The translations under genes and the position numbers were made by a program. This document shows positions 1,697 through 64,000 of a DNA stretch of 64,000 nt, one piece after another (within the stretch, counting starts at the first letter, position 1; every line of letters begins with the position of its first letter). This DNA comes from Patescibacteria group bacterium. Lineage in GTDB: Bacteria; Patescibacteriota; Dojkabacteria; JAKAPS01; JAJZLI01. The notes beneath the pieces are model-generated. The model was not told the DNA's origin. It worked only from the letters and a program-made list of their open reading frames with translations, and did no database searches. The stretch lies in NCBI GenBank assembly GCA_023380695.1, contig JAMCRT010000030.1, forward strand, positions 3,978 through 67,977, in the 5' to 3' direction.

Positions 1697-1698
1697 AA

Positions 1699-9960: not shown

Positions 9961-9995
9961 GTTGCTAATAAAATATTTCTTACTAATTATATCTT

Positions 9996-10367: not shown

Positions 10368-10430
10368 ATAAAAATATTATTAACATAGACATTGAGCTTC
10401 GTCAATACTAATAATTATAAATCTATAATA

Positions 10431-13829: not shown

Positions 13830-13859
13830 TAATCTATAAGATATAGTATACTGTGTATT

Positions 13860-27216: not shown

Positions 27217-28992
27217 TAGTACACACACATATTGGACTTTAGGTGTGAATTTAAAATAAAATTTATAAAACTTTTAAAAAGATTATCATAAGAACTATCA
27301 AACAAGACTTTTTCAGCACTATTATTTAATTGGAAAAGACCCGGGCTACGACTACAGCCTGTACAATACTTAATCGTGTCAAAATCGTTTGTACCTATAC
27401 ATAATCGTTCCATGAAATACTTATGGTCTAGAAAACAATGTGTCAACAAAATTGTTATTCGTAATAACAGTAAACGTATTTTCAGGGTACAATGCATTAA
27501 ACTCATTAGGCAATTTGGCTTGCTTTTCCTTCCACTTAAACTCAAAAGCATTTACCTTCCCACTATACTCTTCAACAAGATCAATTTCTTTTTGGCTATA
27601 ACTACGCCAGAAAAAATAGTTTGGTTTATATTCTCCATATTCATTTGATTTTATTCTTTCAGTCACACAAAAGTTTTCCCACAATGCACCTACATCATTA
27701 CGTAAATCCAATTCATTAAAATTTCTAATAAGACTGTTGCGCAACCCAAGGTCTATGAAATATATTTTGCGTAGTTTTCCTACTTCGTTGCGCGGATTTC
27801 TTTTCAAGGCTGGAAGACGATAAATAACGAAAGTCTGCTCCAACAGAAAGATATATCTCTCAATAGTTTTGATATCTACCTCCAATAGGTTTGACAGTTC
27901 ACTAAGACTAACCTCATTTCCTAATTGTAGGGCCAAAGCTTGAAGCAGTTTGGTTAATAAAGGAGCCTTCTTGAGATTTTCATATTTCAATATGTCTTTA
28001 AATAAATAATTGGAACTTAGATCTGTAAGTGCATCAACGGCTTCACTGTCTGACATATTACATATCATTGGATATGAACCAAATATAAGCATCCTCTTCA
28101 TGACCTGATCTGTGACTAACCTGTCACCTTGAGTAATTTCTACAAATGAGAGTGGCTCTAAATGAAAAGTTCTTGATCTTCCAGTCAATGGCTCACTAAT
28201 TTTATTAGCAAGATCAAAACTAGAGCTCCCTGTCGCAATAATTTGCATTTCAGGATAATTTTCCACAAGAAGTTTTAAGGTGATCCCAATATTTTCTATT
28301 CTTTGAGCCTCATCAATTACCACAAGCTCGTAATCTCCTATAAAATTTTTTAATTCCATAGAACTTCTATTTGTCAGATTAGCGACCACACTTGGTTCAT
28401 CTCCATTCAAATATCGACCTTTTTTCGAAGATACCTCTAAAATTTTTTTGCTGAGAACAGTCTTTCCAACCTGGCGCGCACCATACAAAATGATAACTTT
28501 CCCTTTATAGAGATGCTTTTCAATATTATCTTGTAGCATTCGATGAAATATCATAACTAAATTATAGTAAATTGATAGACACAAGTCAACCAATTATATA
28601 TAAATTGGTAGACTTTATGTAAATAGTGCTTATTATTACTATCATCTCCTAAGTTTCTCTTAATTTAAGATATATGATATAGCAGTATTGGTTTAAGGGA
28701 TAAATTGGATATAATTTCTGGGCTGTCCAACTGGATACAATAAAAGGTGGCAAAATAATGTACTGGAGAATATATTATGTTAAAAGTAAGAACTATTAAA
28801 ACAGAGTTTTAGACAAAGCTCATAAAGAAAGCCATATTTTATATTATACTGGTAGGTGAATTAACAAACAGAAAATTTACTAAACGTCCGAAATTCCCAT
28901 ATTCTTATGTATTTTATAAATTGTTGAAAATTTACTAATTGGGCAAGTTAGGAAATATTAACCTAAATATATCAACCCTCTATAGACGACAC
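27217..28992. mobile_element. Inserted cassette of about 1.8 kb, flanked by 37-bp direct repeats, carrying a COG1373 AAA+ ATPase
   Basis: It sits between convergent rpe and zwf. The flanking repeats equal the rpe 3' end. Repeat copy B carries CAA>TAA, so it reads NVLYG*. Confidence 0.45.
27421..28593 (-). CDS. COG1373-type AAA+ ATPase (DUF4143-like), second paralog
   Basis: ILYGARQVGKTVLSKKIL is the Walker A motif. VVIDEAQRI is the Walker B motif. Confidence 0.7.
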   Translation of the reverse strand: MVDLCLSIYYNLVMIFHRMLQDNIEKHLYKGKVIILYGARQVGKTVLSKKILEVSSKKGRYLNGDEPSVVANLTNRSSMELKNFIGDYELVVIDEAQRIENIGITLKLLVENYPEMQIIATGSSSFDLANKISEPLTGRSRTFHLEPLSFVEITQGDRLVTDQVMKRMLIFGSYPMICNMSDSEAVDALTDLSSNYLFKDILKYENLKKAPLLTKLLQALALQLGNEVSLSELSNLLEVDIKTIERYIFLLEQTFVIYRLPALKRNPRNEVGKLRKIYFIDLGLRNSLIRNFNELDLRNDVGALWENFCVTERIKSNEYGEYKPNYFFWRSYSQKEIDLVEEYSGKVNAFEFKWKEKQAKLPNEFNALYPENTFTVITNNNFVDTLFSRP

Positions 28993-46917: not shown

Positions 46918-48252
46918 CTATTGTAAAGAACTTCGTATTTCATAAATTTGATTTTTTAGAGCATAATCATCATTTATCATTTTTTCTATTTTATCTACTG
47001 CATACATTACTGTTGTATGATCTTTTCTTTTTAAAAGACTTGCTACATCTGTATAGGGAAGATTTAAATCTACTCTTAAAAGATACATAGCTACCTGTCT
47101 TGGCATAACCACTTTATTTGTTCTTCTTTCTCCCCTTATTTCTTTTATTGATATACCAAATTTTTCACATATTGTATTTATAACATCTTGGGGTTTTATT
47201 CTTTTTATAGTTTTTTTTATCTGTATTCCTAAAATATCTTGTATTTCACTAAATCCCAGTTTTTTTTGTAAAGAATTTTGTATTGCTTCTATTTTTGTTA
47301 AAATTCCTTCAAGTTCTCTTACATTGGATCCAAAATTCTCAGATATAAAATTTATTATATCTTTATCAAATGTTATGTTTTTTTCTTCACATTTTTTATT
47401 TAAAATTGCAGTTTTTAGTTCTATATCTGGAACTCCAATGTCAGCAACCATTCCACCTTCAAATCTAGATACTAATCTTTCTTCTAAATTTTCTATATCT
47501 CTTGGGTGTCTGTCTGAGGCTAATATTATTTGCTTATTTGCTTGATGAAGAGAATTAAATGTGTGGAAAAACTCTTCTTGAGTTCCTTTTTTACCAGATA
47601 TAAATTGTATATCATCAATTATTAAAACATCTTTATCTCTGTATTTTTTCCTAAATTTATCTGAAGAACCATTCTTAATAGACTCTATTAGTTCTCCTAG
47701 AAATGTCTCTGAAGATAAATAAACTACAGAATAACCCTTATTCTTATCTTCTATGGCATTTCCTATGGCTTGTAGTAAGTGGGTTTTTCCAAGACCAACA
47801 CCTCCAAATATAAAGAGAGGGTTGTATATCATTCCAGGTTTCTCAACTACTGCAATAGAAGCTGCATGTGCAAGTCTGTTTGAGGAACCGACAACAAAAT
47901 TAGAGAATAGGTATTTTTTATTTAGATTTGAGGTTTGTTTTTTATCTGTATTGTCTGTTTCTTTTGTATATTCAAATATTGGAGATATGTCATCATCTTC
48001 TAGTTTTTGTATAATTGAAAAATTGATATCAATGGGTTCTCCTGAGGCATCTTGAAGTGCATTTCTTACAGTATTTAAATAGTTGTTTTGAATATAGTCT
48101 ACTATAAATGAATTCTGACATTCTATATTTGCAACCCCATCTTTAATTTCTTTTAAATTTAATTTTGAAAACCAAACTTTAAAACTCTTTTCAGGAACCT
48201 TCAGTTGTATTTTGTCAGTTGCTATTTTCCAAACAGAGTTGATGTTGTCCAT
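46918..48252 (-). CDS. dnaA: Chromosomal replication initiator DnaA
   Basis: LFIFGGVGLGKTHLLQAIGN is the Walker A motif. The C-terminal HTH block ...DHTTVMYAVDKIE is present. Confidence 0.95.
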   Translation of the reverse strand: MDNINSVWKIATDKIQLKVPEKSFKVWFSKLNLKEIKDGVANIECQNSFIVDYIQNNYLNTVRNALQDASGEPIDINFSIIQKLEDDDISPIFEYTKETDNTDKKQTSNLNKKYLFSNFVVGSSNRLAHAASIAVVEKPGMIYNPLFIFGGVGLGKTHLLQAIGNAIEDKNKGYSVVYLSSETFLGELIESIKNGSSDKFRKKYRDKDVLIIDDIQFISGKKGTQEEFFHTFNSLHQANKQIILASDRHPRDIENLEERLVSRFEGGMVADIGVPDIELKTAILNKKCEEKNITFDKDIINFISENFGSNVRELEGILTKIEAIQNSLQKKLGFSEIQDILGIQIKKTIKRIKPQDVINTICEKFGISIKEIRGERRTNKVVMPRQVAMYLLRVDLNLPYTDVASLLKRKDHTTVMYAVDKIEKMINDDYALKNQIYEIRSSLQ

Positions 48253-48456: not shown

Positions 48457-49101
48457 TTATAAAATGGCATTAACACTATCTGAAGAGTCTTCAAGCTTAG
48501 CTTCATCTATAACTTTATTTAAGTGAGTTTTTGTCATAGTTTTTAATTTTTTTGAAGGTATTTTCTCTACCCAGTTGAACAACCCGTTATAATCAAAATT
48601 TGATGGCAATGTTAACTCAACCAATGAAACATGGCGAGACCCAAGAACCGAGAGCAGATAAATTGTGTCGAATAGTGCTTTTTCCTTTGTTGCTAAACGT
48701 ACTCCATTTGTTTCAATAAATCCTCCATAGAGTTCTTTTGTAATATGATAAATGTGGAAAGTACCTAATGCAGTAGGTATTTTTTGAGCACGATCTAAAG
48801 ATATAACATGGATTTCTTTGGGAATTTGTTCAATCATATCATGCCTTGATAAGGCTGTCCAAAAAGATCCATAGGCACTATATGGAGCGGTAAGATATGG
48901 GGCAACAATAAGTGGATCCCTTATTGTGCTAATTGCCCACAATCCCCTTTTTATTTTTGTAACAACTCCAGAGTCTACTAGGGTTAACATAGTCTGGGAT
49001 GCAGCTGGTAGGGTTTTTTTTAAAACTAAAGCTACCTCAGTAGTTGTGACTATCGGTTTTTTAACTTGCGCTAGACGACCCAACGACATTATAGAATTCA
49101 T
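48457..49101 (-). CDS. AbiEi-like antitoxin/transcriptional regulator (COG5340-type winged-HTH N-terminus)
   Basis: KKPIVTTTEVALVLKKTLPAASQTMLTLVDSGVVTKIKRGLWAI is the AbiEi_4-type N-terminal domain. TAATG overlap with the upstream gene. Confidence 0.65.
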   Translation of the reverse strand: MNSIMSLGRLAQVKKPIVTTTEVALVLKKTLPAASQTMLTLVDSGVVTKIKRGLWAISTIRDPLIVAPYLTAPYSAYGSFWTALSRHDMIEQIPKEIHVISLDRAQKIPTALGTFHIYHITKELYGGFIETNGVRLATKEKALFDTIYLLSVLGSRHVSLVELTLPSNFDYNGLFNWVEKIPSKKLKTMTKTHLNKVIDEAKLEDSSDSVNAIL

Positions 49102-49919
49102 TATTTATCCTCCTTTTGGATTTTGATCTTTTTAATTTTATTAAATTTGTTTGAATTCTTATTTTTATGTATATTATTCATACGATTTATGACAAATTCA
49201 TGCATCCTTTCCCATGACTTTATAGAGTCATATGTTATTCTAAAATCATCTTTTAAAAAAGGGATTACCTGTTCTTTGAAATCTTCATAAGTTAGATTCT
49301 CTACTCTTGATAAGGCCTCTAATATATCTTTCTGTTTTAATATAGTGAGGTGACTTTCTGTTTTTCTGAATAATATCTCTAAATCAAAAATGTCTCTAGC
49401 CTTTGTTTCATTTCTTCTTGCTAGTGCCATAATTTTTTGGTCAATCATTGCATCTAAATTATATCTTTGCAGTAAGTATGGAGTAATGCCATATTGCCCA
49501 ACAATGCTTTCGGGAATATCTATTGTATCAAAACCATAGTCACTATGACGACCAGAAAATTCTATTTTAGTTCTAATTTCAACATCAGAGTTAGTTAAAA
49601 CTAATCCTAATTTCCAGCGATGAGTAGTTGTAGTCTGTTTTGGTTTACTAATATTTACAATGGAAATATTAGCACTATTAAGAGTACTAATAAGTACATT
49701 ACTAACTAAAACCTGACCAACAATTTTTTCTAGCTTTAATCCTTCATCTTTGATTAAATCTAGCTCAATGTCATTAGAATACCTAGGACTATTAAAATAA
49801 TACCTAAGATTAGCACCACCTTTAAGTACGTAATTTTTTGGATTATACTTATAAACCAAAACCGATAAAAATGTTAAATGGAACCGTTCTATAATTTGTG
49901 GTTTTGACGTTTCATTCAT
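49101..49919 (-). CDS. AbiEii/AbiGii-family nucleotidyltransferase toxin (DUF1814)
   Basis: YVLKGGANLRYYFNSPRYSNDIELDL is the PF08843 signature (KGGTaL...RfSeDlD). Confidence 0.7.
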   Translation of the reverse strand: MNETSKPQIIERFHLTFLSVLVYKYNPKNYVLKGGANLRYYFNSPRYSNDIELDLIKDEGLKLEKIVGQVLVSNVLISTLNSANISIVNISKPKQTTTTHRWKLGLVLTNSDVEIRTKIEFSGRHSDYGFDTIDIPESIVGQYGITPYLLQRYNLDAMIDQKIMALARRNETKARDIFDLEILFRKTESHLTILKQKDILEALSRVENLTYEDFKEQVIPFLKDDFRITYDSIKSWERMHEFVINRMNNIHKNKNSNKFNKIKKIKIQKEDK

Positions 49920-50001: not shown

Positions 50002-50559
50002 ATGAAAAACGAAGGAAGATCTTCTATAAAAATACTTTTAATTGCTGTTATAGTAATAGTTATTCTTGCGTTAATTGTGTTTTTAAATATTCAAACAGGA
50101 AGAAAGGCTTATAACGTAATAAATCCTGGTGGTAGGATTAATGATGCAAATAACCGGTCAAGGGTATCTAATATTAAGGCAATATTTGATGCTCTACAGA
50201 TGTATTATTCCAATAATGGTACATACCCTGCAGGTTTAAATAAACTTCCATCTCCCCTTATAACAAATGCCCCATATGGTTATTCTGTTACTGGATCTAC
50301 AATTGGCGTACCTAATTGTGTTTCAGGTTCAGGAACAATACCTAATGCTACAGTTACAGTTTCTTCGTCTTGCACAAAGCTTACAGCAGGCTCTGTGATA
50401 TATAAAGAACTCTCCAAATATATAAGTGTTATTCCAACGGGGAATTACTATTTAGTTGAAAATAGTACAGGAAACAAAGTTGTAGTATTTGCAACTGGAA
50501 TGAGGCAAGGAATAACATCCGATACTGAAGGTTATCCAGTAGCCTGGTATTATAACTAA
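50002..50559 (+). CDS. Pilin paralog with a corrupted prepilin motif (MKNEGRSSIKILL instead of G/FTLIE). Mosaic of the two downstream pilins.
   Basis: The N-terminal 100 nt are most like the 50643 gene. The C-terminal ~280 nt are ~88% identical to the 51242 gene. Confidence 0.55.
   Translation: MKNEGRSSIKILLIAVIVIVILALIVFLNIQTGRKAYNVINPGGRINDANNRSRVSNIKAIFDALQMYYSNNGTYPAGLNKLPSPLITNAPYGYSVTGSTIGVPNCVSGSGTIPNATVTVSSSCTKLTAGSVIYKELSKYISVIPTGNYYLVENSTGNKVVVFATGMRQGITSDTEGYPVAWYYN
50278..50559. repeat. Repeat of about 282 bp shared with 51497-51778 (pilin C-terminal coding segment)
   Basis: Near-identical runs such as ggttattctgttac(t/c)ggatctacaattgg(c/a)gtacctaattgtgtttcaggttcaggaacaatacctaatgctacagttacagtttcttc. 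Confidence 0.8.
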
Positions 50560-50642
50560 ATATATCTAACACAAAATGTTTCTGTAACAATGTTTTTATA
50601 GAACACTTTTACTTCTTTTATTTATTTGCTATAAATTAATTA

Positions 50643-51167
50643 ATGAAAAATGAAGGTTTCACTCTTATAGAAATACTTTTAGTTATAGTTATAATAGCAA
50701 TACTTGCATTAGTTGTGTTTTTAAATATTCAACCACAAGGAAGGATATATGATGCTACAGATAGTACAAATATAAAAGAGATTAAATCTGTTTTATCTGC
50801 AGTTGAGATGTACACGGTTGATAATAAAGGTAATCCTCCTTCATCTATTCCGTTTATTCCCTCTCCTTTCATTACAAACAATAAAAATTCTTCAGGTTTA
50901 GGTTCTGGGTTTAATATTACAAATAATTCTACAGGAATTCCTAACTGTACTCAGGCAGGGGCTAACACAAACACATGCTTACCAATAACTAATGCTTTAT
51001 TTGACTCTCAGATAAAGAAATATTTATCTGCTATGCCTTCTGGGCAATTTTATATTGCAAGAAGTTCTGGTGGTTCACAAATTGTTGTGTTTTCATCAAG
51101 TATGAAAAAAGGAATAACAATTGATAGTAAAGGGTTTGGAGTAGGATTTGATATTTACAGATTTTAA
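50643..51167 (+). CDS. Type IV pilin (class III signal peptide MKNEGFTLIEILLVIVIIAILA)
   Basis: Canonical G/FTLIE motif. Confidence 0.8.
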   Translation: MKNEGFTLIEILLVIVIIAILALVVFLNIQPQGRIYDATDSTNIKEIKSVLSAVEMYTVDNKGNPPSSIPFIPSPFITNNKNSSGLGSGFNITNNSTGIPNCTQAGANTNTCLPITNALFDSQIKKYLSAMPSGQFYIARSSGGSQIVVFSSSMKKGITIDSKGFGVGFDIYRF

Positions 51168-51241
51168 ATATAAAAGAGTTGTTTGACAAAACTGTAAGGT
51201 TATTCTAAATTTAATATAATAAAAAGGAGGTGAGCTAGAAA

Positions 51242-51778
51242 ATGAAAAAAATAAATAACAAGGGTTTCACCTTAATAGAAATTCTTATAGTAATTGTTAT
51301 AATAGCTATACTTGCATTAGTTGTATTTGTTGCAATAAATCCTGTAGGTAGGATTCATGATGCAAACAACTCATCAAGAGTATCTAACATTAAATCAATA
51401 TTTAATGCTGTGCAGATGTATACTTCTGATAATCAAGGATCATATCCAGGTGGGTTGTCTCAACTTTCATCTCCACTTATAACAAGTGCTGCATATGGTT
51501 ATTCTGTTACCGGATCTACAATTGGAGTACCTAATTGTGTTTCAGGTTCAGGAACAATACCTAATGCTACAGTTACAGTTTCTTCATCTTGTGTACAACT
51601 TACATCAGGATCTACAATATATACAGAACTATCTAAATACGTAAGCTCTCTTCCAACAGGGAATTACTATTTAGCTGAAAATAGTGCAGGAAACAAAGTT
51701 GTAGTATTTGCAACTGGAATGCAACAAGGAGTAACATCCGATACTGCAGGTTATCCAGTAGCTTGGGATTATAACTAA
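51242..51778 (+). CDS. Type IV pilin, likely the major pilin
   Basis: MKKINNKGFTLIEILIVIVIIAILA. Strong Shine-Dalgarno (aaaaggaggtga) 8 nt upstream. Followed by a GC-stem terminator. Confidence 0.85.
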   Translation: MKKINNKGFTLIEILIVIVIIAILALVVFVAINPVGRIHDANNSSRVSNIKSIFNAVQMYTSDNQGSYPGGLSQLSSPLITSAAYGYSVTGSTIGVPNCVSGSGTIPNATVTVSSSCVQLTSGSTIYTELSKYVSSLPTGNYYLAENSAGNKVVVFATGMQQGVTSDTAGYPVAWDYN

Positions 51779-52812: not shown

Positions 52813-53028
52813 AGATATATGGCTATTGATAGTTTGTATTGATTGATATATATTTAAAATATGATAAAAAGATTTATATATTTTGTTTATTTAAAACTTC
52901 AGTTAAAGTTTCTAAAATTTAAAGTTTTGAAAAAAAGACTTGGGGCATATAAAGAGGATGCAGTATCTTTAATCGAGAGTAATTCCCACTCAGATTTAAG
53001 AGCTAAAAGCTCTATAAGTATAAAAAAT

Positions 53029-54438
53029 ATGTTCTATATTCTTATTGTATTTTTTGCTCTAACTACAGGGGTTGTTTTTGCAAGCTCAGGGAGTTCAAAT
53101 TTAAATCAATGTGCTCCAGTTAACGGGTCAGGATTGTCTGTTTGGAATTCTTGTGGTTTTACCCCGTCAATTTTTCAATCAATGTCAATTTCAATACTTG
53201 GAAACTATACTCAATATCAAAATTTACTAGGTTGTGGAAGTAATCAAAAGTGTGTTAATTCATTTCATTACACAGGAGGATATGGGGCACTAGGAGATAC
53301 AACAGCACTTATGGGGTATATGTATACAGAGCATCCTGCATCAGGTGTTGGGTATTTTGCATACCTAGGACAAAAAGCAGGCTTTATAAACAATACCTAT
53401 GCTGCGGGTACTTCTCAGGTTACTTCAGAGCCTGTATATGGATTTTCTTTTCTTTCCCCAATAGAACATCTTTGGGCATTTTCTAGAGATATAGCATACT
53501 TACTTCTAGTTATAGTTATTATTGCAACAGGTCTTCTTATTATTATTGGGGGGAAAGTAGGGCAGTCTCAAATTCCAATAACGTTTATGAGTGCACTTCC
53601 AAATATTGTTGCAGCAGTAATATTGATAGAATTTAGTTATGCACTAGGGGGTTTTATGATAGATATAATGAATATTTTACTAGTACTTATTTTTAATATA
53701 TTTAGCTCGGGACTTCAGCATCTTGGGAACACAGGTTTTCCTTCTGCATTTAGTAGTAATTCATATATTTTTCATGTATTTGGAAGCTTACCTGGCGCCA
53801 TTAGTGGTGGATTACAGTCAGCAAGATTAAATAAACTTGTTACGAGTGGAGGCTTGTTAGGGGGACTGTTAAACTCATTAGGTAATCTTGCTTCGAACAA
53901 GACATTTTCTGGGATTATAGCTTTTTTAATAGCTATAATCCTATTATTTACAGCCTTAAAAATATTTATTTTACTTATGAAATCTTACTTGCAACTGTTA
54001 TTCTTGCCGATAGCTGCACCTTTTATGTTTCTTTTTGGGGCATTTCCAGGACAGGGAAAAATGATAGGTAAGTTTTTTATGGGTATGGCTAAAGCAGTTT
54101 TAACATTTGTTATTGTATATGTTGTGTTTCTTTTAATTTACTATTTACAACATGGAAACAATGGAAGTCCTTTGTCATTTGGAAATGGAGCAAATGTACC
54201 TTTGTTAGGATTTTCATATTTTACAAGTAATGGAGGAACAGAGGTGGTTTCTGTATTTATCTCTATTGCTTTGTTTGTCTGGATTCCAAAGATTGTAGCT
54301 GATATGACAAAGGCATTTGGATATGATCTTGGTGCATATGGTACAGAACTTAAAAAGGGATTTTCAGACCCATACTCAAGGCTTACTAATTGGTATAAAA
54401 GAGGGAGAGGTTCTCTGTCTTCCAGAGGTAATGCCTGA
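53029..54438 (+). CDS. VirB6/TrbL-like polytopic membrane protein (signal peptide, Cys-containing extracytoplasmic domain, 5 or more TM helices). Tentative.
   Basis: Start chosen at MFYILIVFFALTTGVVFASS (the track ORF begins at 52861). About 140 aa extracytoplasmic domain with 5 Cys. Then multiple Gly-rich TM helices. The architecture and context resemble VirB6/ConG. Confidence 0.35.
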   Translation: MFYILIVFFALTTGVVFASSGSSNLNQCAPVNGSGLSVWNSCGFTPSIFQSMSISILGNYTQYQNLLGCGSNQKCVNSFHYTGGYGALGDTTALMGYMYTEHPASGVGYFAYLGQKAGFINNTYAAGTSQVTSEPVYGFSFLSPIEHLWAFSRDIAYLLLVIVIIATGLLIIIGGKVGQSQIPITFMSALPNIVAAVILIEFSYALGGFMIDIMNILLVLIFNIFSSGLQHLGNTGFPSAFSSNSYIFHVFGSLPGAISGGLQSARLNKLVTSGGLLGGLLNSLGNLASNKTFSGIIAFLIAIILLFTALKIFILLMKSYLQLLFLPIAAPFMFLFGAFPGQGKMIGKFFMGMAKAVLTFVIVYVVFLLIYYLQHGNNGSPLSFGNGANVPLLGFSYFTSNGGTEVVSVFISIALFVWIPKIVADMTKAFGYDLGAYGTELKKGFSDPYSRLTNWYKRGRGSLSSRGNA

Positions 54439-54452: not shown

Positions 54453-55109
54453 ATGAATCTTAGAGCATATTATTATCAAAAATATGGAAATGAATTTGAT
54501 GTATTTGCCCATTTTATAAATACAAATGGACTAGAAAGTGACTTTTTGGAGCTGTTTGAAGTATCAAGAGATTATTTGAAAGATAGCCTAGATTTTGTTT
54601 TGTATGATTATTTTTTTTCAGCAATAGATTTTTTTTATTCAAATAGTTCTGATATAAAATATGATTTTCTTTTCTTTAAAAAAATAATAGATGAGAAGTT
54701 TATTGAGTTTTGTATGTCAGATGAAGGGAAAGAGATAATTGATGAGACACATCTATATTTTGGAGGGAAGAGTATAGATATATTCGATGTTATTTATAAT
54801 AGTAGAGAACATTTTGAAAATTCCGATTATCCTTCTGTTGTTACAAATCTAGAATATTTCAAATTTCTAGATAAATATTCAGATATAAAATATATAAAGG
54901 AGGTAAAAATTCTATCAATGCTTAGAACATTTATTGACAATGGGGGTTTTGGTGGAGAATTTTTCTCTCCATTTAGCAAAGATATGCAAAAATATACAGA
55001 CATTATTATAAATGGAGATTTTAGAGAAATGGATCAAAGAGTTTTCAGAAGTAATATTGAAGAATTTAGAGGAATTTTAGAAATAGAAGATATAGGGGTA
55101 TATGAATAA
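54453..55109 (+). CDS. Hypothetical acidic cytoplasmic protein
   Basis: No TM helices. Rich in D/E/F/Y. Confidence 0.35.
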   Translation: MNLRAYYYQKYGNEFDVFAHFINTNGLESDFLELFEVSRDYLKDSLDFVLYDYFFSAIDFFYSNSSDIKYDFLFFKKIIDEKFIEFCMSDEGKEIIDETHLYFGGKSIDIFDVIYNSREHFENSDYPSVVTNLEYFKFLDKYSDIKYIKEVKILSMLRTFIDNGGFGGEFFSPFSKDMQKYTDIIINGDFREMDQRVFRSNIEEFRGILEIEDIGVYE

Positions 55110-57835
55110 TGGATATAAATACTGCGGTTAGCACATATTGTGACCAATACTATACAAAAGAAGCTCTTTTTAGACTTTTGCGTACTAATAAAATAGATCC
55201 TGGTAATATAACAATTTCTGATGACGAGTTAAATATACTAGTCTCTACAGATCAATATGCAAGATTTGTTACACTGCAAATTGCAGAAAATCTTAAAGCA
55301 AGATTTACTGCAAATAAAAGTACTGTATATAGACAGAGATATCTTAACAATGAGGCAGATTTGCTTTCTAAGGCTATAGCCCCATTTATTGCATCAAGCT
55401 ATATTCCAGATGAAAGAAGGGAAGGTAGAGTAACTGGCATTAACGGCGTACATACAAATCTTAGGGCAAGAGGAAAGATGCTGGAGACTGCAATTGACTA
55501 TTGCCTTACAGTGTATCATGAACATGGGTATATGCCTCAATTAGATCAAACTTTGAAGCCTGTAGGAGCTATTCTTCCATCTGGATTTTCTAGAACCGGG
55601 AGTATTGATATAAGAGGGGGGAACGTTGACTCTGTTTCTTTACAAGATTTGCATTCTGTAATAAAGGAAGTCGCATGGAATGCTGGAATAAGGGCTGGAG
55701 TAAAAAGTCTTACAAAAAAACAAAAAATAGCAAGATTACAGTCTAAGTATGGAATATCTTCTGATGAGGCAGAAAGAATTTATGAAAAATTTTTGGAAGA
55801 GTTTAGTTATATAAATATACTTCAAAAAGATAATGGGAAAAGTTATGAGAGACCTTTACTTGAAAGACACGGAATCTACCCAAGACTATATCTTTGGCAA
55901 TATATATTAAATGATACTAGGGCAAAAAGAAAGGGGTCTCTGTTAGATATTCCACATACATGGAGAATGGCAGCAAAAATAGGGTTTACTTCTGCTATAT
56001 CCTCTGGTCGTTGGGGAAATGTGAGAGACGCAAGTGCATATAGAGACACAATTTTTGGAAAGATTTTCGAACACAAAAAAATTGAATATATGGGAGCTGT
56101 GATGAGTTTTGTTGCCAAAGAAGAGGAAAGAACTCTTCCACTAGTTGTAAGTAGAGAGCGTAAAAGAGCTCTTAAAGGAAGAAGGTTGTGGGGTGCTGAT
56201 AAAACTAACCCATATTTATATTCCGACTATATTGACTCTCAAGTTTTCATTAAAGCAAATAGTAAAAAGATTTCTGATAGATTAGAAGAAACGGTGTCTG
56301 AGAGAAATTCTGTATTAAAATGGTTTCAGAAAACAAAAAATGCAAAAGCAATAAAGGCATATAAAAAGCCTCCTAGTAAGAAAAGTAAAAAAAGAAGAGG
56401 ATTAAATTTTTTAGATTTAATTTTGGCTGTTCCTGCATTAGTTATAGATGCAATAACTTTTCTTGCTACAGATGCTGCTTTAGCTGGAGTAAGTGTTTTA
56501 GGCAAATTAGGAATTGTTAGTGAAGATAGTTTTTTAAGAACTATTTTTTCAGGAAATATGGAAGGAGGATTGTGGGATAAAATTCTTCTTTCATGGGATG
56601 GAATGAAATTTACATTTTCTGGGCTTAAATTTGTATTAAAAGATTCAATTGTGGGGGCAATACCTGGGGCTATAGTGGCAGTTCTTTCAGGGAGTCCATT
56701 GCTTGGTGGAATTGTATCTTTTACAATGTTTGCTCCAAAATTCTTTGGAGACTTTACACAAATGTTTGCAATGTCAGGGCCTGCAGGTGATATAGTTACA
56801 AAAATTGTAGAGGATTTTGGAGAAAAAAGTCTTTCAGGTGGAGAGATTTTGGTAAAATCACTTGGTTCTGGGGTATATATTGGGGCCCCTTTATTTATAC
56901 TGTCTGCACTTTTTGGCCTTCCTATAGGAACTGCAGCTCTTATTACTGTGGGGGTTGTTGGGGTAAGGGCAGCAGATCTTGCTATCTTTGAGAAAGTTTT
57001 AAGTCCAAGATTTATCGACGCAGGTGCCATAGATGCATCTACCGCTCAGGAGGTTTTATTTAAATCAAAATATCTTCTTAATTTTGGTACTCCTAGTCTT
57101 GGACTAGTAATTGCAGGTGCCGTGACAGGGAATATACCTTTATTAATTTTAGGTGGTGCAGGGTTTACAACATCTGCAGTTTCAGATTTCTTTAGAAATT
57201 CTTTGTTTGACAGTATGTCTATTAAAAGTGGGACAGATTTAGTTTCTTCTATACATGGAGTTACAACATTTACGTTGGGTCCAGCAATAATAGGTGGAGC
57301 CATAGGCGGTCCAGTGGGAGCAGTAATAGGAGGAGCTATAGGAGGGGTTACTGGTATTAGCTTTACTCTATTAAAGCATACGGTTTCAGATATAGCTATA
57401 GATCCAAGAATGCGGGTATTTGCAGAAGATGAGAGCAAAATGATAGAGGCTCAAAGAAAACTTATTTCATTTAATAGAAATTCTTTTACTACTGATGCCG
57501 AGAGAGGTATTTTAAGAAACTTTGATCCACGAACAGGAGTAGACGGGAATATTGACAGTTTATTGAGAAGTAAAGGATATGATTTTAAAATACAGGATTT
57601 GAGAGATTGGGGATTAAATGATGCTGATATTGAAAGGTTGTTTAGAGGTAGGGCTACTTTCTCAGGGACAGTTATAGGGGTGAAAAATTTTAACTTTGAA
57701 CTGAAATCATTAAAGGAGAATGTAGAAGCAGTAAGGGGAGAATTTTTAAGGGATTTTGTTAATGAAGATAAACTTGCAACGGATTTGGGAAAGGGAACTT
57801 CAGCTACAGCTCCCATATATTCAATTTTTTTGTAA
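55109..57835 (+). CDS. Large (908 aa) protein: soluble N-terminal domain of about 420 aa followed by a glycine-zipper-rich multi-TM region
   Basis: Residues 420-720 are full of GxxxG/AxxxG arrays (e.g. GGAIGGPVGAVIGGAIGGVTG). I recognise no catalytic motif. Confidence 0.45.
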   Translation: MDINTAVSTYCDQYYTKEALFRLLRTNKIDPGNITISDDELNILVSTDQYARFVTLQIAENLKARFTANKSTVYRQRYLNNEADLLSKAIAPFIASSYIPDERREGRVTGINGVHTNLRARGKMLETAIDYCLTVYHEHGYMPQLDQTLKPVGAILPSGFSRTGSIDIRGGNVDSVSLQDLHSVIKEVAWNAGIRAGVKSLTKKQKIARLQSKYGISSDEAERIYEKFLEEFSYINILQKDNGKSYERPLLERHGIYPRLYLWQYILNDTRAKRKGSLLDIPHTWRMAAKIGFTSAISSGRWGNVRDASAYRDTIFGKIFEHKKIEYMGAVMSFVAKEEERTLPLVVSRERKRALKGRRLWGADKTNPYLYSDYIDSQVFIKANSKKISDRLEETVSERNSVLKWFQKTKNAKAIKAYKKPPSKKSKKRRGLNFLDLILAVPALVIDAITFLATDAALAGVSVLGKLGIVSEDSFLRTIFSGNMEGGLWDKILLSWDGMKFTFSGLKFVLKDSIVGAIPGAIVAVLSGSPLLGGIVSFTMFAPKFFGDFTQMFAMSGPAGDIVTKIVEDFGEKSLSGGEILVKSLGSGVYIGAPLFILSALFGLPIGTAALITVGVVGVRAADLAIFEKVLSPRFIDAGAIDASTAQEVLFKSKYLLNFGTPSLGLVIAGAVTGNIPLLILGGAGFTTSAVSDFFRNSLFDSMSIKSGTDLVSSIHGVTTFTLGPAIIGGAIGGPVGAVIGGAIGGVTGISFTLLKHTVSDIAIDPRMRVFAEDESKMIEAQRKLISFNRNSFTTDAERGILRNFDPRTGVDGNIDSLLRSKGYDFKIQDLRDWGLNDADIERLFRGRATFSGTVIGVKNFNFELKSLKENVEAVRGEFLRDFVNEDKLATDLGKGTSATAPIYSIFL

Positions 57836-57865
57836 AGAGAAATTCCAGGATACAGAGACTTAAAG

Positions 57866-59548
57866 TTGGGTGATGCAGGAAATGTAAACGAACTAAGGAA
57901 TATAGATTTATCAAAATATTTTGAAGGGTCTAAGTTTGAATTGAATTTAAAATTTTTAGAGCATCTAACTTTAAGTGATATTGCCAGTGAAGAGGGATTA
58001 GTCGCAAAATTAGCGGATTTGAGGAATGTGGATCCAGGGAGATTAGTTGATATACAAAACTTTTTTACAGAGAGAGGGCTAGAGGGCGGAATAGATTTCA
58101 CTAACAATGCTAGGATTGCAAGAGCTCTTGGCAATGTAAATATAGCAGAGCTTTCAAAGGAAGGGATTTTGAATGATTTAGTAATAAAGTCTGGAGATTT
58201 AACGGGTAGCATAGAGGAGCTAACAGGGTTTGATATAAGGGCTGCAGGTCTTAGTGCAAAAGTTTTGCAAGGAGCTCCTTGGTCAATATCAAAAATTCCT
58301 GCATTAATGAGATCTGATATAAAGCTTCCTATACCTGGAATGACACACGCAACATTTGCAGATATATCTCCAGCTATGAACTCAGGATTTATTGCTGGAA
58401 TTGGGTTAAGTCTTGTTGGTGTATCTCCCGTGATTGCGGTGGCTACAGGTGTGGGAGTTATGGGTGCAAGACTGGTTCTTTCTAGTATTTATAGGAGTCC
58501 AGAGACTAGTTTGCCGATAGGTGCTATTGGAGAAGGAGGCAAAGCATTACTAGAGGCTTTTTCTCACAGTATTAACGTAGGAATGGTTACTTTTGTAGTT
58601 GCAGATCTTTTACTTCATAGTATTCCTGTTGCTGGAATGGTAGCCGCTGGTGTAACTGCAGGATATACAGCATTAAGATTTATATTGAAAGGTAAAGGTT
58701 GGTTTAAAGATGGGGGCGGAATTATTAAGGGTATAGGGGCTGCAAAGGCGGACTTTCTTGGAAAATTAGGTGTTCCAGATTGGGCAATTAAAATTTTTTC
58801 ATTAAAAGGTGCATTTGATGTTGGTATGGTAATACAGCTTGATGACTCTTTGATGAATCCTGCCAAATTTATATCTACACTTGGAACATTCACACTTCCT
58901 GCCATTATAAGTTCATGGGGTACGTTAATTTTTGGGTTTGCAGGAGCATACGGTTTAGCGGCGCTTATACTTGGAGCAGGATTCGGGCTTGCAACGGCCG
59001 GTTTGGGGTTAGGGATACTGGTGGTAGGATATGGAATAGATTGGTTAGTAAAAGGTATTACAGGATTTGATATTGGTCATTGGATTTTAGGTTGGATAAA
59101 AACAGGAATATCTGATGTGTTTTCATGGTTTGGAAATCATGCTATGGCTCCAATCTCTTGGGGTTTTGATATCCTAATTACTATGATGCTTTTAATCTTT
59201 AGGACAGATTTTGATATAGATGAGTTTGTGCGTACAATTGTAACTACCGTTGTTATTGTTGCTATATTTATGAATATTTTTGGAGGGGGTGCTGCTTCAG
59301 GAGGTACAAATAGCAATACTTCAAATATTGCAACAAACAATCATACAAAGTCTGGAACTGTTGGGTTTCTAGTGTCCCCATATTCTGGAAAAATTGTAAA
59401 TATAGAACAAAATAGCAAGATTTTGGCAGATACTGTATATATAAAGAATTCAGAAGGAGAAGTAAGTGTTCATAATATATATAACCCATATTTGTATATT
59501 GGTGAACATATAACTAAAGGTTCATTTATTGGGAATACTGTAAAATGA
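57866..59548 (+). CDS. Glycine-zipper membrane protein (560 aa) with a C-terminal half-M23/lipoyl-like beta domain
   Basis: FGFAGAYGLAALILGAGFGLATAGLGLGILVVGYG. C-terminus YSGKIVNIEQNSKILADTVYIKNSEGEVSVHNIYNPYLYIGEHITKGSFIGNTVK. Confidence 0.45.
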   Translation: MGDAGNVNELRNIDLSKYFEGSKFELNLKFLEHLTLSDIASEEGLVAKLADLRNVDPGRLVDIQNFFTERGLEGGIDFTNNARIARALGNVNIAELSKEGILNDLVIKSGDLTGSIEELTGFDIRAAGLSAKVLQGAPWSISKIPALMRSDIKLPIPGMTHATFADISPAMNSGFIAGIGLSLVGVSPVIAVATGVGVMGARLVLSSIYRSPETSLPIGAIGEGGKALLEAFSHSINVGMVTFVVADLLLHSIPVAGMVAAGVTAGYTALRFILKGKGWFKDGGGIIKGIGAAKADFLGKLGVPDWAIKIFSLKGAFDVGMVIQLDDSLMNPAKFISTLGTFTLPAIISSWGTLIFGFAGAYGLAALILGAGFGLATAGLGLGILVVGYGIDWLVKGITGFDIGHWILGWIKTGISDVFSWFGNHAMAPISWGFDILITMMLLIFRTDFDIDEFVRTIVTTVVIVAIFMNIFGGGAASGGTNSNTSNIATNNHTKSGTVGFLVSPYSGKIVNIEQNSKILADTVYIKNSEGEVSVHNIYNPYLYIGEHITKGSFIGNTVK

Positions 59549-60417
59549 AAGTAATAAAAATTGTTATACCAATAATTGTATTTATAGCATTAATATATTT
59601 ATATGTTTTGAGTATGAATTCTCATAGTAATCTACATATAAAGATAAAAAGTAAAAAGTCTCATATCAATAGTTCCAGAAATATTCCTAAAGTCTCTTTT
59701 CAGTCAAATAAATTCAGATTTTTAAAAAATAATTTCAAGTTTGGGTTTAATCCTCAAAATAACAGTTATTATGTAAATAAAGTAAATTTAAATCCATATT
59801 CTGTTGCTATAAATTTAGGTTTTTCAAAAGCTCCAACAACTATAAATGGTAGTAATAGTTTGGTGTGGACAAATAGTAAGGGACATTTAGTTTATTCAAA
59901 TAATACATACTTTGAAATTTTAAATAAAGGATCTTCTTCTAATATTCAAAATTATAAATCTCAACTGATAAAAAAAGTGTTTAATATGGGAAATATCTCT
60001 TCTGTGGATTCTGAGAATATTGTAGGTAATACATATGTATATAAAATATATCCTACTATAGATAGTCAATATATATATACCAACAATTTTCACAGATTTT
60101 ATGAAAGTATAATTCTTTATTCAAATAAATCATTAAAAAGTTTTTCTATATTACCCATAGATTTGAAAACACAAAAAGGATATTTGAATAAAATTACTTT
60201 AAGCTATATTAATATGAATAACTATCCTTTATATATAGGGAATTTAAATAGTGGAACTATTTCAGGAATAAATATAGGTAAGGTTAGAAATATCTTTTAT
60301 TATGATCTTTCATCAAATAATATAATTCCTGCATATATGATTTATGGAAATGTTGTTATAATAAATAATGGAGATATGAGATATGAGAGTTTTATACCAA
60401 AAATTAAGTACAATTAG
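59545..60417 (+). CDS. Secreted/bitopic hypothetical protein (possible VirB8-like scaffold). Speculative.
   Basis: N-terminal TM/signal sequence MKVIKIVIPIIVFIALIYLYVL. Tyr/Asn-rich beta-type sequence. Confidence 0.35.
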   Translation: MKVIKIVIPIIVFIALIYLYVLSMNSHSNLHIKIKSKKSHINSSRNIPKVSFQSNKFRFLKNNFKFGFNPQNNSYYVNKVNLNPYSVAINLGFSKAPTTINGSNSLVWTNSKGHLVYSNNTYFEILNKGSSSNIQNYKSQLIKKVFNMGNISSVDSENIVGNTYVYKIYPTIDSQYIYTNNFHRFYESIILYSNKSLKSFSILPIDLKTQKGYLNKITLSYINMNNYPLYIGNLNSGTISGINIGKVRNIFYYDLSSNNIIPAYMIYGNVVIINNGDMRYESFIPKIKYN

Positions 60418-62830
60418 TCTCATTTTAGGCACAATATTTTGCATTATGCTTTTTGTTAATGTATCAAATGTACATGCTGCATCATGTGCTAGTTATACGG
60501 GGAATGCTCCACAACATATGGCAGTATCTTGTAACGGTAATCTGTTAACAGGGAAAATAGTTCTTAATAATATTGCAAAGAATAAATTGTCTGCCTCAGG
60601 AATTGGAACTGTAAATGTTAGTATTCCAAATATTCCTTTATTTAAATATTTTGACTCTGTTTCTTCTTTAGGTGTTAAAAGTAATCCTACCAATTTTGGT
60701 ATTCCATATCAAACATATGGATATTTAATGGAGAAATTAAACTATAATCCAAATATTAACTATAATGTCTCTTCTAATCTAAATGGTGTAGGGGCATTAA
60801 ATATTCCATATTCTTGTGGTGCCAGTAATGGGGTTACATGTTCTGTTATGTCTATAAATGGAAATGGTAATTATGGATATTTTAGTGTTCCGTATATTGG
60901 AAAAGCCGCAGACTTGTTTACGCTGGGAAATATATTTTCATTAAGTTCTCCCTATAAAATAAATACAATCTCACTGCCCAATAACTCTATTATAACGAGC
61001 ACTCCAAATTCTTTAATAGGAAAATGTTCAGGGAGTTCTAATGGTTGTGTGAGTGGAAAGAAACCTTTAGACTATAAATTAACAACAGGATATGGGAATC
61101 CTTATACTCTTCAAGGAGCAACAATTAATAAACAAATATCAATTTTAGGTACGATTGGCACATTTTTTAGCAATTTATGGGGTAGCGTAACTTCTGTTTT
61201 GACTGGATTAGCTTCTGCTATTGGCCTTGGGTCTAACCCCCCTCCGCCTCCTTTAACAAAGAATTTTCCATTAAGCTCAAGCAGTGGGTTTTGTCCTCAG
61301 TATATATCTCAACTAAATAATACTGCGCCTATTTCTAATACTGGCCAAAATGCATGTACACAAGGATCTCCTGCATTTCAAGTACAGGCATCATTTTCCT
61401 GTGTACCACAATATAATACATATATAAAAGATCAAAAAATTATGAATACTGACCAACAAAGTGTAAATCAAGAGACAGTAGTTGTGAATGGTTTAGTAAA
61501 TCGAGTAAATACATTAACTCAATATATGAATTCTCCCAATACTAGTTTTCAGTCTGCGCTTGGTACTGGACTGGAATTAAATTCTTTGCAAACTCAATTA
61601 TCTGCAGCCGAGAATACATTGAATACGGATAATAGTGCTTTGTCTGTTGCAATTGCAAATTTAAATATTGCTAATACAAATTTGCATAATTGTCTTTCAA
61701 CCCTACAGACATATGAGACTAGTGGTGCACCATTTTCTTTCCAATCAGATCTTTATTTACAAGGAATAAATAGAATTTTAGCAGACTTTTGGTATATGGA
61801 GGCTATAATGAATGGAGGCCCTCCTATTGGACATACTAACACTCATTCTTGGAAAAATGATGTAAATTCAAAAACATTTTTTCTCAAGAAAAATATTAAT
61901 AGAACAAATCTATATAAAGGAATAGGAATCTCAGTTCCAGTTAATATAACAATTAAAACTTACAGCGCTGAAAATGCTGCTAGTATTACCACTGGGGCTA
62001 CTAGTGCTACATACTATTTCCCATGGCTAGGAGATGCTATACAAATTGCTCAAAATCTTGCAACACATCATTTTCAGCCATATTACGCAAATAATACAAC
62101 ATCTTCCTCTCCAACTTACCCTACCTTAGCTCCTGGTGAATATTATATTAAAGATCCATCAAAGCATCCAGACCCTTTATTGTTATACCTTATTTGCACA
62201 GGATCTTTATCTCCAAATGATCCGGTGGTAAGGAATGCTTTAGGTTCATATAGTGTTTCAAAATTCTTTTCATCTGGGGCATGTAATGGTTCTCCTTCTG
62301 TAAGTACTACATCAGTACCTGCAGGAGGAACACCTACTAGCAATGGATCATACAATAATCCTTTAAGAAAAATATCTAAACTGAACCCTGAAAGAATTGA
62401 TCAAGGAGTTGATTATTCTGGGACAGGGCCAATATATGCCTTAGGTCCAGGAACAATAGTATATGTACATGCACCAAGTAACAGTGGTTGGGGACCAAAC
62501 AATATCTTTATAAACGAAAAATTGTCTGCAGGATCTGCAAAGGGACAATATGTATATGTGGCTGAATGTATAAATCCTACAGTATCTGTTGGGCAATCGG
62601 TAACATCTTCTACAGTTATAGGATATATGACAAATTGTGGTTCAGGCATTGAAACTGGTTGGGCAACAGGTCCCAATGATCTAGCTGCAGCACATAGTGT
62701 TTTTAACGGAAGTAATTCTACAGCTTTTGGTCTAAATTATAGTGAATTATTAGCTTCACTTGGGGCACCTCCGGGAAACCTTAATCTCCCTTTATTAGGG
62801 ACTCTTCCGTCTAATTGGCCCAATTGGTAA
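60383..62830 (+). CDS. Secreted 815 aa protein with a C-terminal degenerate M23 (LytM-like) domain
   Basis: Signal peptide ...FVNVSNVHAASC. C-terminus RIDQGVDYSGTGPIYALGPGTIVYVHAPSNSGWGPNNIFINEKL...QYVYVAECINPTVSVGQSVTSSTVIGYMTNCGSGIETGW follows the M23 topology, but HxxxD is DQGVD and the HxH motif is absent. Confidence 0.5.
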   Translation: MRVLYQKLSTISLILGTIFCIMLFVNVSNVHAASCASYTGNAPQHMAVSCNGNLLTGKIVLNNIAKNKLSASGIGTVNVSIPNIPLFKYFDSVSSLGVKSNPTNFGIPYQTYGYLMEKLNYNPNINYNVSSNLNGVGALNIPYSCGASNGVTCSVMSINGNGNYGYFSVPYIGKAADLFTLGNIFSLSSPYKINTISLPNNSIITSTPNSLIGKCSGSSNGCVSGKKPLDYKLTTGYGNPYTLQGATINKQISILGTIGTFFSNLWGSVTSVLTGLASAIGLGSNPPPPPLTKNFPLSSSSGFCPQYISQLNNTAPISNTGQNACTQGSPAFQVQASFSCVPQYNTYIKDQKIMNTDQQSVNQETVVVNGLVNRVNTLTQYMNSPNTSFQSALGTGLELNSLQTQLSAAENTLNTDNSALSVAIANLNIANTNLHNCLSTLQTYETSGAPFSFQSDLYLQGINRILADFWYMEAIMNGGPPIGHTNTHSWKNDVNSKTFFLKKNINRTNLYKGIGISVPVNITIKTYSAENAASITTGATSATYYFPWLGDAIQIAQNLATHHFQPYYANNTTSSSPTYPTLAPGEYYIKDPSKHPDPLLLYLICTGSLSPNDPVVRNALGSYSVSKFFSSGACNGSPSVSTTSVPAGGTPTSNGSYNNPLRKISKLNPERIDQGVDYSGTGPIYALGPGTIVYVHAPSNSGWGPNNIFINEKLSAGSAKGQYVYVAECINPTVSVGQSVTSSTVIGYMTNCGSGIETGWATGPNDLAAAHSVFNGSNSTAFGLNYSELLASLGAPPGNLNLPLLGTLPSNWPNW

Positions 62831-62875: not shown

Positions 62876-63274
62876 ATGAACTTAACAGAACTTCATACTA
62901 TAATAAAAAAGTATTATCCTTGGGGATTATTAATAATTCTTTTTATACTGATTATTATATTTATAATGTCCCCATCTACTCCTGAGATCAATAAAAATAT
63001 TCCAAAAAGCCTAGAAGTAGTAAATCAAAGTAAATTTAGTGCGAAAGCAATAAATTATAATGGGCCAAATTTCGACATACATTATGTTCCAACTTATCCT
63101 AGTAACGGAAAGTTGAGTGCAGGGAAACTATATGTGGATATAAAGGTAGATGCTTTTTTAAATTCTCCTAATTTAAAAAAAGAGGAATCAATTCTTTTGA
63201 ATAAAGCAAAGAGATATTTATCAAAAAATGGAATAAATCCAAATGAGAAAAGTATAGTGTATACATTTAATTAA
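62876..63274 (+). CDS. Small membrane-anchored/secreted hypothetical protein
   Basis: N-terminal TM helix. Confidence 0.3.
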   Translation: MNLTELHTIIKKYYPWGLLIILFILIIIFIMSPSTPEINKNIPKSLEVVNQSKFSAKAINYNGPNFDIHYVPTYPSNGKLSAGKLYVDIKVDAFLNSPNLKKEESILLNKAKRYLSKNGINPNEKSIVYTFN

Positions 63275-63399: not shown

Positions 63400-64000
63400 A
63401 TGGAAAATAAATGGAATAAGAATATATTAAAAAAGAAAAATTTACTAGTTTTAATAGCTATAGGCATATCTACCACATTTATTATCTTTTCGGTAAAAGT
63501 ATCGTTTGCGAAAGAAGTGCCTCCATGGTTAAGAGGCTATCCGTTAAATTTATATGTGCAAAGCATAGTTAATGGTAGTGGAAGCGGAGGGGTTGGCGTA
63601 ATTACAGGAAATGGGGGAACGGGGGCTCCTCCAAGTTCATGCAATAAGGCATTATTTACAAATGGAGGTAATTGTCATTTGTCTAAGGGGTTACTAACTT
63701 TATATGGAAAAGTTGGAAGTTTAATGAAGATACCTCCAGCTTTTCTTGCGGCTGAAAAACATCAGGAATCTGGGGCCAATTGTCTTTTTAATGAAACAAA
63801 TAGTGGAAACACTACAGCAAATGCAATTTCTCTTATGTCTATTATTGATCATAGCCTTAATTATCACTCTACTGGGCCATATCAATTTGAGCCTGCTACG
63901 TGGAGTGGATATGCTACTCAGACATGGAGTATTATAAAACAAAATTTTCCATATGCTATATCTGCTGGAGAGAGTCAGAATATTTTATTAGATTCTATGA
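63400..64000 (+). CDS. Lytic transglycosylase (SLT-domain, VirB1-like), partial. Runs off the window end.
   Basis: My translation from the ATG at 63400: MENKWNKNILKKKNLLVLIAIGISTTFIIFSVKVSFA... is a signal peptide. Then ...MKIPPAFLAAEKHQESGAN...GPYQFEPATWSGYA carries the catalytic E-S motif and the GLMQ-equivalent block of SLT domains. Confidence 0.55.
   Translation, partial: MENKWNKNILKKKNLLVLIAIGISTTFIIFSVKVSFAKEVPPWLRGYPLNLYVQSIVNGSGSGGVGVITGNGGTGAPPSSCNKALFTNGGNCHLSKGLLTLYGKVGSLMKIPPAFLAAEKHQESGANCLFNETNSGNTTANAISLMSIIDHSLNYHSTGPYQFEPATWSGYATQTWSIIKQNFPYAISAGESQNILLDSM

Follow-up and report, generated by a model that had tools for sequence, protein, structure and literature searches.

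One giant membrane protein, annotated as two, is encoded in a conserved operon beside the replication origin of a Patescibacteria lineage

We analysed a 64,000-nucleotide stretch of the Patescibacteria contig JAMCRT010000030.1 (hereafter the window), a low-GC (~30%) chromosome segment around the replication origin (oriC), and focus here on the gene at 55109-59548 within it, whose product is the largest of a translationally coupled, syntenically fixed operon beside oriC. NCBI annotates this gene as two hypothetical proteins, M1145_02720 (908 aa; MCL4393029.1) and M1145_02725 (560 aa; MCL4393030.1), and a first-pass annotation of the window likewise described two giant proteins. Both open reading frames (ORFs) are present, at 55109-57835 (908 aa) and 57866-59548 (560 aa, with a TTG start), but they lie in the same frame, are separated only by the TAA at 57833-57835, and represent one membrane protein of 1,479 residues. 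The TAA is brought in by 23-28 nt copied in inverted orientation from further upstream in the gene, and it is this copy that splits the annotation.

55109..59548, forward strand: giant membrane-protein gene, 1,479 aa, interrupted by an in-frame TAA in this assembly
57806..57833, forward strand: inverted patch of 28 nt, a perfect reverse complement of 56073-56100, creating the TAA at 57833-57835
56073..56100, forward strand: source copy of the patch, N-terminal-domain codons for the conserved motif KKIEYMGAV

Two independent assemblies of the same organism, contigs L009 (ENA) and L010 (Logan), contain an uninterrupted ORF of 4,440 nt encoding 1,479 aa, which differs from window positions 55109-59548 by 13 mismatches, all of them inside 57811-57833, and is otherwise identical; outside these mismatches L010 matches the window at 100% identity across 12,309 nt. 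At the patch both assemblies read AESSRTFLEREIPG where the window reads APIYSIFL*REIPG, and their AESSRTFLE resembles the corresponding stretch of the homologue P0002, ESSRVYLEKNFDG (ESSRVYLE). P0002 (1,496 aa) spans both ORFs as one polypeptide, with 56% identity to the first and 49% to the second, and the window TAA aligns opposite a Glu codon (GAA) of its gene. The motif encoded by the source copy, KKIEYMGAV, is also kept in P0002 and P0003. The gene is continuous in the close relatives L008 and P0002 and, in a scan of 1.84 billion representatives, every full-length homologue was a single ORF of 1,458-1,577 aa sharing a conserved C-terminus. Finally, one protein cluster at 90% identity holds the 1,479-aa form (3 contigs) together with the 908-aa and 560-aa NCBI halves.

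Two origins are conceivable for the inverted patch, a mutation by template switching or an artefact of assembly; since it is the sole difference from an independent assembly over 12.3 kb, a true mutation would have to be very recent. An alternative genetic code was ruled out, as the in-frame stop is a TAA and the housekeeping ORFs are intact under table 11. It is improbable that the split is genuine in this strain and that the halves act as separate polypeptides: the reading frames of both halves are intact, NCBI annotates both and a TTG lies 30 nt past the stop, yet this TTG has no convincing ribosome-binding site, no relative is split and the 23-nt patch is all that sets the window apart from the independent assembly. 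The split in the public annotation reflects either an error or a lesion of very recent date and deserves to be corrected. An anomaly of 23 bases such as this would mislead any census of protein families.

Two further observations concern the gene itself. Antisense ORFs of 80, 234, 130, 253 and 96 aa run across it (window 55876-58905, reverse strand); they are unsupported as genes, and one of them holds APIYSIFL, the same peptide as the patch-made end of the 908-aa ORF. On contig L003 the giant gene's C-terminal half has its match on the other strand (9444-10331, reverse strand) and trmD lies in two ORFs (3225-3906); this contig is probably misassembled, and its 1,132-aa product P0004 is therefore not a natural short form.

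The giant protein has very few relatives. A full HMMER scan of the 1.84 billion representatives returned only ten true relatives (about 10 clusters), and a sequence search among 5.8 billion sequences returned four matches. No relatives were found by family-alignment scans of GTDB species representatives and JGI metagenomes, or by tblastn against phage (50,697 records) and plasmid collections. A word-index search with the second ORF alone found nothing and missed P0002 too, low-complexity candidates having probably swamped it. When the giant protein, its relatives and the operon partners were scanned against Pfam, NCBIfam, PHROGs and PADLOC, nothing scored above threshold: the only PHROGs matches of the giant protein (E 0.01-0.04) are to families whose function is unknown, an RTX match was insignificant (E 0.12), and the PADLOC anti-phage defence models matched none of six operon proteins. 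The only recurrent family match, which was sub-threshold, was that of a glycine-zipper segment to the C19orf12-like and PdsO families; for C19orf12-like it reached E 1.8e-4 and 21.8 bits against a cutoff of 30, in 3 of the 11 family members. The earlier description of the protein as having no evident family therefore stands as far as curated families go, and by these sequence comparisons the family is uncharacterised, restricted to one Patescibacteria lineage, extremely narrow and outside all known families. The giant protein is 27-35% identical between relatives, compared to 56-61% for DnaA and TrmD, and such fast evolution would fit a surface or host-interface role.

Structural comparisons gave little further information. 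Sequence and profile searches of the PDB with the whole protein, its N-terminal domain, middle and tail, and with the 525-aa product of a neighbouring gene, yielded only sub-significant matches, to the S100-like protein S100-A12 (N-terminal domain, E 0.006), EIIA-Glc, FtsX (E 0.2) and coronavirus spike HR1. AlphaFold2 models of the two halves, built from 11- and 7-sequence alignments, had a mean predicted local distance difference test score (pLDDT) of 48.5 and 41.4, respectively; local values were 30-84 in the N-terminal domain and 31-38 in the tail, and in the central domain they reached 62-82 in residues 30-100 of the second ORF only. The Foldseek comparison proposed in the first-pass annotation was run with both models against the PDB and gave noise, with nothing below E 0.3, and the models are too poor for the fold search to be informative.

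In the numbering of the joined protein, the giant product is an integral membrane protein of six parts, namely an N-terminal domain, a first hydrophobic block, a middle domain, a second hydrophobic block, a linker and a beta domain.

55109..56398, forward strand: N-terminal soluble domain, aa 1-430, basic and predicted to be helical, lacking a signal peptide and any hydrophobic segment
56399..57373, forward strand: hydrophobic block 1, aa 431-755, with five family-conserved cores at about aa 437, 520, 597, 665 and 727
57272..57364, forward strand: glycine zipper, aa 722-752, LGPAIIGGAIGGPVGAVIGGAIGGVTGI, with seven GxxxG within a 50-aa bin
57374..58378, forward strand: central soluble domain, aa 756-1090, acidic (isoelectric point, pI, 5.2) and helical, including the stop-creating lesion
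58379..59305, forward strand: hydrophobic block 2, aa 1091-1399, with six family-conserved cores
59306..59545, forward strand: Ser/Asn-rich linker and conserved ~65-aa beta-rich C-terminal domain, aa 1400-1479

The N-terminal domain contains 75 Lys and Arg against 48 Asp and Glu residues (pI 9.8; 9.9-10.2 in orthologues), includes the conserved motifs IPHTW and GYMP, and closes with the polybasic run KKPPSKKSKKRRG directly before the first hydrophobic core. It is presumed to lie in the cytoplasm, and the ~420-aa cytoplasmic-looking domain described earlier is borne out with a length of ~430 aa. In contrast, the packed helices of more than 150 residues proposed for the membrane segments resolve into five or six separate conserved hydrophobic cores per block. 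Both blocks are rich in Gly, Ala and Ser (15-16% Gly; 33% for the three together), and many of the cores span 30-45 residues around a central Gly/Ser-x-Pro kink; such kinked cores could be helical hairpins, which makes the membrane topology ambiguous. The glycine zipper on which the first description relied is clear only at residues 722-752, and block 1 as a whole shows a weak excess of GxxxG (12 against 6.9 expected from shuffled sequences, p~0.03) that comes mostly from these residues; block 2 shows no excess (7 against 8.2), and outside residues 722-752 the blocks have no significant one. This segment has in common with the C19orf12-like and the Gly-zipper OmpA-like/PdsO families a motif of the IGGxxGGPVGAVIGGxxGG type, but here the motif makes up ~2% of the protein and scores below the curated cutoffs. 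Block 2 as a duplicate of block 1 was ruled out (hhalign probability 4%).

The central domain varies from 313 to 450 aa among relatives. In it and in its relatives a motif of the form G-[hydrophobic]-[STDNP]-x-x-[DE]-[hydrophobic] recurs (e.g. WGLNDADIERLF and LGIPAEEIDRM), with 7 occurrences observed in the central domain against ~0.9 expected (seven proteins). This pattern suggests small repeated helix-turn units, and it matched no known fold.

The C-terminal domain follows the pattern SPxSGKIxNI...ADTVYIK...NPYLYxGExIxKGxFIGN and was earlier taken for half of an M23 domain. Its ~65 aa do correspond to roughly half an M23 domain, but the alignment of seven tails contains no invariant His or Asp, the M23 metal ligands HxxxD and HxH are absent, Pfam M23 (PF01551) matched 1 of the 11 family members (E=1.1), a PDB sequence search with the tail gave no M23 match, and BLASTP of the tail against the M23-like domain of the hydrolase encoded nearby gave E 0.07 across 24 aa. 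A profile of the tail gave borderline matches to EIIA-Glc of the phosphotransferase system (E 0.005-0.015) and weaker ones to NqrA and the lipoyl-domain protein GcvH. These three proteins have hybrid-motif or barrel-sandwich folds, to which the duplicated-hybrid-motif fold of M23/LytM domains is related, and the more general pattern SPxSGKIxNI...V.IK...NPxLYxGExIxKGxxxG fits a hybrid-motif hairpin. Given the borderline hybrid-motif matches and the insignificant M23 match, we tentatively regard the tail as a hairpin domain of the hybrid-motif type that is probably non-catalytic.

The giant gene is flanked by genes for membrane, acidic and cell-wall-directed proteins.

52861..54438, forward strand: 525-aa polytopic partner, with an N-terminal anchor, a ~120-aa ectodomain with 4 Cys and about 7 further transmembrane (TM) segments
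54453..55109, forward strand: 218-aa acidic partner, pI 4.5, with no TM segment; its stop overlaps the start of the giant gene
59545..60417, forward strand: 290-aa bitopic partner, basic, with an N-terminal TM segment; its start overlaps the stop of the giant gene (ATGA)
60383..62830, forward strand: 815-aa hydrolase partner, secreted or anchored, with a C-terminal cell-wall hydrolase domain
62876..63274, forward strand: 132-aa small bitopic protein, downstream of the hydrolase

Stop and start codons overlap among the 218-aa gene, the giant gene, the 290-aa gene and the hydrolase gene. The locus runs in the order dnaN-dnaA, type IV pilin gene or genes, trx, trmD, ~520-aa polytopic protein, ~220-aa acidic protein and giant protein, followed by a ~288-aa bitopic protein, a hydrolase of 753-815 aa and small bitopic proteins. 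This gene order is identical in L001-L010, L014 and L015, in which DnaA identity falls to as low as 59-61%. The housekeeping genes trx and trmD lie upstream of the operon, and the genes for L25 and a class-I aminoacyl-tRNA synthetase lie downstream.

Of the partners, the 525-aa protein is itself lineage-restricted (16 homologues; 51-56% identity between the window protein and its relatives) and matches no family, VirB6/TrbL included; a distant homologue in L013 proved uninformative, as it adjoins an unrelated large soluble protein. The 218-aa protein was found in every locus recovered, and the 290-aa protein has no Pfam match. In the hydrolase the N-terminal two thirds are kept among relatives and the catalytic domain is exchanged: the window hydrolase has a weakly M23-like one, that of L004 is CHAP, and those of L005, L014 and L015 are NlpC/P60. 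Relatives encode proteins of 126-133 aa at the same operon end as the 132-aa protein, a correspondence of placement only, since similarity is not demonstrated. After the 132-aa gene, at window ~63400-64000 on the forward strand, comes a gene that runs off the end of the window and encodes another protein with an N-terminal anchor (276 aa in L009 and L010; no Pfam match recorded); a GPYQFEPATW-type stretch in it may, by eye, recall lytic transglycosylases, and in L004 and L005 different genes (~230, ~260 and 126 aa) lie in its place.

What this operon does can be approached through the secretion genes of the same chromosome. Type IV secretion systems (T4SSs) and pilus systems are essential to Patescibacteria for their life attached to other bacteria (PMC12102498, PMC12857230). 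At the other end of the window lies a partial set of T4SS genes:

1-3537, reverse strand: monoderm-type T4SS triad (PrgI-family/VirB3-like, TrsD-like and VirB4), continued in contig L016 at 10001-14534

No VirB6, VirB8 or VirB1 gene lies beside this triad in the window or in L016. The T4SS reading of the giant protein is attractive because the triad lacks these neighbours and because, in a survey of Patescibacteria, T4SS genes turned up near dnaA while VirB6, VirB8 and VirB1 frequently escaped detection or were encoded away from virB4 (PMC12102498). Our preferred reading, which we hold tentatively and with low confidence, is that the giant protein may be the membrane platform or channel scaffold of an assembly, formed by the operon products, that would span the cell envelope. 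The basic N-terminal domain would lie on the cytoplasmic side, with the acidic 218-aa partner perhaps bound to it; the hydrophobic blocks would be embedded in the membrane, and the C-terminal hybrid-motif domain would face outward, close to the bitopic 290-aa protein and the wall-opening hydrolase. The giant protein would then be an analogue of an "extended VirB6", the operon would in function be most like the VirB6/VirB8/VirB1 part of monoderm T4SSs, and it may supply the parts missing beside the orphan VirB3-TrsD-VirB4 genes.

Extended VirB6 proteins are known from the F plasmid (TraG), rickettsiae (the RvhB6 paralogues), Tn916 (Orf15) and ICEBs1 (ConG). They combine at least five hydrophobic helices with large hydrophilic domains, central or terminal (PMC12857230), and like them the giant protein is very large and polytopic, with eleven cores and three large soluble domains; this likeness is generic and not diagnostic. 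In monoderm systems, extended VirB6 genes are accompanied by genes for a bitopic VirB8-like protein and a multi-domain cell-wall hydrolase, an arrangement paralleled by the bitopic partner and the hydrolase of the giant locus. The giant protein departs from extended VirB6 proteins in its two hydrophobic blocks, its basic N-terminal domain of 430 aa and its C-terminal beta domain, in a family confined to about 10 clusters, and in having no detectable sequence similarity to them. By analogy of architecture and context, the closest likeness of the family is to a secretion or translocation module that spans the wall, of which it would be a non-homologous variant.

Several results weigh against assigning the operon to the T4SS. 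In the profile libraries scanned, neither the giant protein nor its partners show sequence similarity to VirB6/TrbL, PrgH, VirB8 or any other T4SS component; the VirB6/TrbL profile in particular gave no match at E<=5 in the giant protein, its 11 family members or the family of the 525-aa partner, and on sequence grounds the giant protein is not a demonstrable member of the VirB6, VirB8 or VirB1 families. A distance of ~52 kb separates virB4 from the giant gene, and no ATPase is encoded in the operon. The structure models (pLDDT 48.5 and 41.4) are unusable and the fold searches amount to noise, and the possible hairpin cores make the topology ambiguous, including the sides of the membrane on which the middle and C-terminal domains lie. 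The fixed place among housekeeping genes would suit a function in the cell wall or in division just as well, and the true VirB6 might be encoded in a second T4SS-like cluster, which lies elsewhere in the genome. The first-pass proposal that the protein forms the conduit of a secretion apparatus thus survives in one respect, namely that a part in an envelope apparatus fits the operon context (coupled membrane partners, a hydrolase, and a triad without VirB6, VirB8 or VirB1), but it finds no backing in homology to T4SS or type VII secretion system components, in an operon ATPase or in a usable model.

More broadly, it is conceivable, if doubtful, that the eight-gene operon is an unrecognised envelope-spanning machine with the giant protein as its channel-forming core, either a non-homologous replacement for VirB6/VirB8/VirB1 or an independent device for host contact or translocation. 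In many Patescibacteria lineages the membrane channel, the VirB8-like protein and the wall-opening parts escape homology detection. A fast-evolving operon beside oriC, with giant polytopic proteins and a swappable hydrolase, is a candidate for these missing parts or for a separate host-interface machine and, although giant membrane proteins without known relatives abound in such genomes, the present one is a defined candidate for the missing membrane parts of an essential system.

An unlikely, though not far-fetched, alternative is a module for cell-wall remodelling or division, in which the membrane proteins hold and regulate an extracellular peptidoglycan hydrolase by a logic like that of FtsEX (with PcsB, CwlO, RipC or EnvC), and the C-terminal hybrid-motif (LytM-like) domain of the giant protein would dock or activate the hydrolase. 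The single-copy chromosomal operon lies among housekeeping genes in every genome of the lineage seen, the borderline hybrid-motif matches of the tail would suit such a domain, and the hydrolase keeps its N-terminal part while its catalytic domain is swapped (M23-like, CHAP, NlpC/P60). Hydrolases controlled by FtsEX show the same variety of catalytic domains, and the FtsX-type regulators of coiled-coil peptidoglycan hydrolases are likewise membrane proteins encoded with an extracellular CHAP, NlpC/P60 or M23 hydrolase, depending on lineage. However, no FtsE-like ATPase is encoded in the operon, the FtsX match is insignificant (E 0.2) and the giant protein is about five times larger than FtsX; moreover, such a narrow lineage distribution and evolution at about twice the rate of housekeeping proteins would be unusual for core division machinery.

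A role as accessory membrane platform for the type IV pilus is very unlikely. One to three type IV pilin genes precede trx, trmD and the operon in every locus, but these two housekeeping genes stand between the pilins and the operon, a pilus set (PilB, PilC, PilM/N and minor pilins) is already present elsewhere in the window, and the operon proteins show no similarity to any pilus component. About as unlikely is a secreted pore-forming effector or translocator with the acidic 218-aa protein as its dedicated chaperone, a variant of the effector-like or toxin-like role raised in the first-pass annotation. In its favour, translation of the small acidic protein (pI 4.2-4.5) is coupled to that of a giant with a basic N-terminal domain (pI ~9.9), residues 722-752 form a glycine-zipper hairpin, and the sequence evolves fast; on the other hand, a spread of at least 11 conserved hydrophobic cores across 650 residues is what a polytopic protein resident in the membrane typically shows, not an exported toxin, no signal peptide, known secretion signal or immunity-like gene was recognised, the RTX match is insignificant, and the gene is single-copy with fixed synteny. 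A prophage remnant, with a tape-measure-like protein and a lytic-type tail domain, can be set aside, as the likeness is superficial (a long helical protein, Gly-rich hydrophobic segments, a small M23-like tail, and PHROG matches that are weak, at E 0.01, and of unknown function) and there is no phage tblastn match, no phage gene nearby and fixed chromosomal synteny across divergent genomes.

The wider window provides the setting for the operon. The origin is marked by the following genes and by a cumulative GC-skew minimum at ~48-50 kb:

46918-48252, reverse strand: dnaA
45505-46638, reverse strand: dnaN

In the T4SS triad the PrgI-family protein is unusually long, at 612 aa, with a C-terminal CarboxypepD_reg-like domain; the TrsD-like protein has 227 aa, and VirB4 has 670 aa and runs off the window. 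The second cluster, which lies in L016 ~5 kb beyond the triad, encodes a TrbC/VirB2-like pilin, a TraC-like protein and another VirB4-like ATPase.

The stretch from dnaA to the pilin genes holds, at window 48457-49919 (reverse strand), a gene for an AbiEii-type nucleotidyltransferase toxin and one for a 214-aa partner, both of which are present in L009 too. As this pair is absent at the same position in L004, L005, L008 and L014, it looks like a recent insertion beside oriC. The pilin genes themselves are three tandem type IV pilin paralogues (window 50002-51778, forward strand). The first (185 aa) is without the canonical GFTLIE N-methylation motif and has no Pfam match; it is ~84% identical to the third at the DNA level over ~455 nt, a recent duplicate with a degenerate leader. 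Finally, the window contains two paralogous genes for AAA_14 + DUF4143 ATPases (10431-11861 and 27421-28593, both on the reverse strand), and a similar AAA_14 + DUF4143 gene adjoins dnaN in L005-L007.

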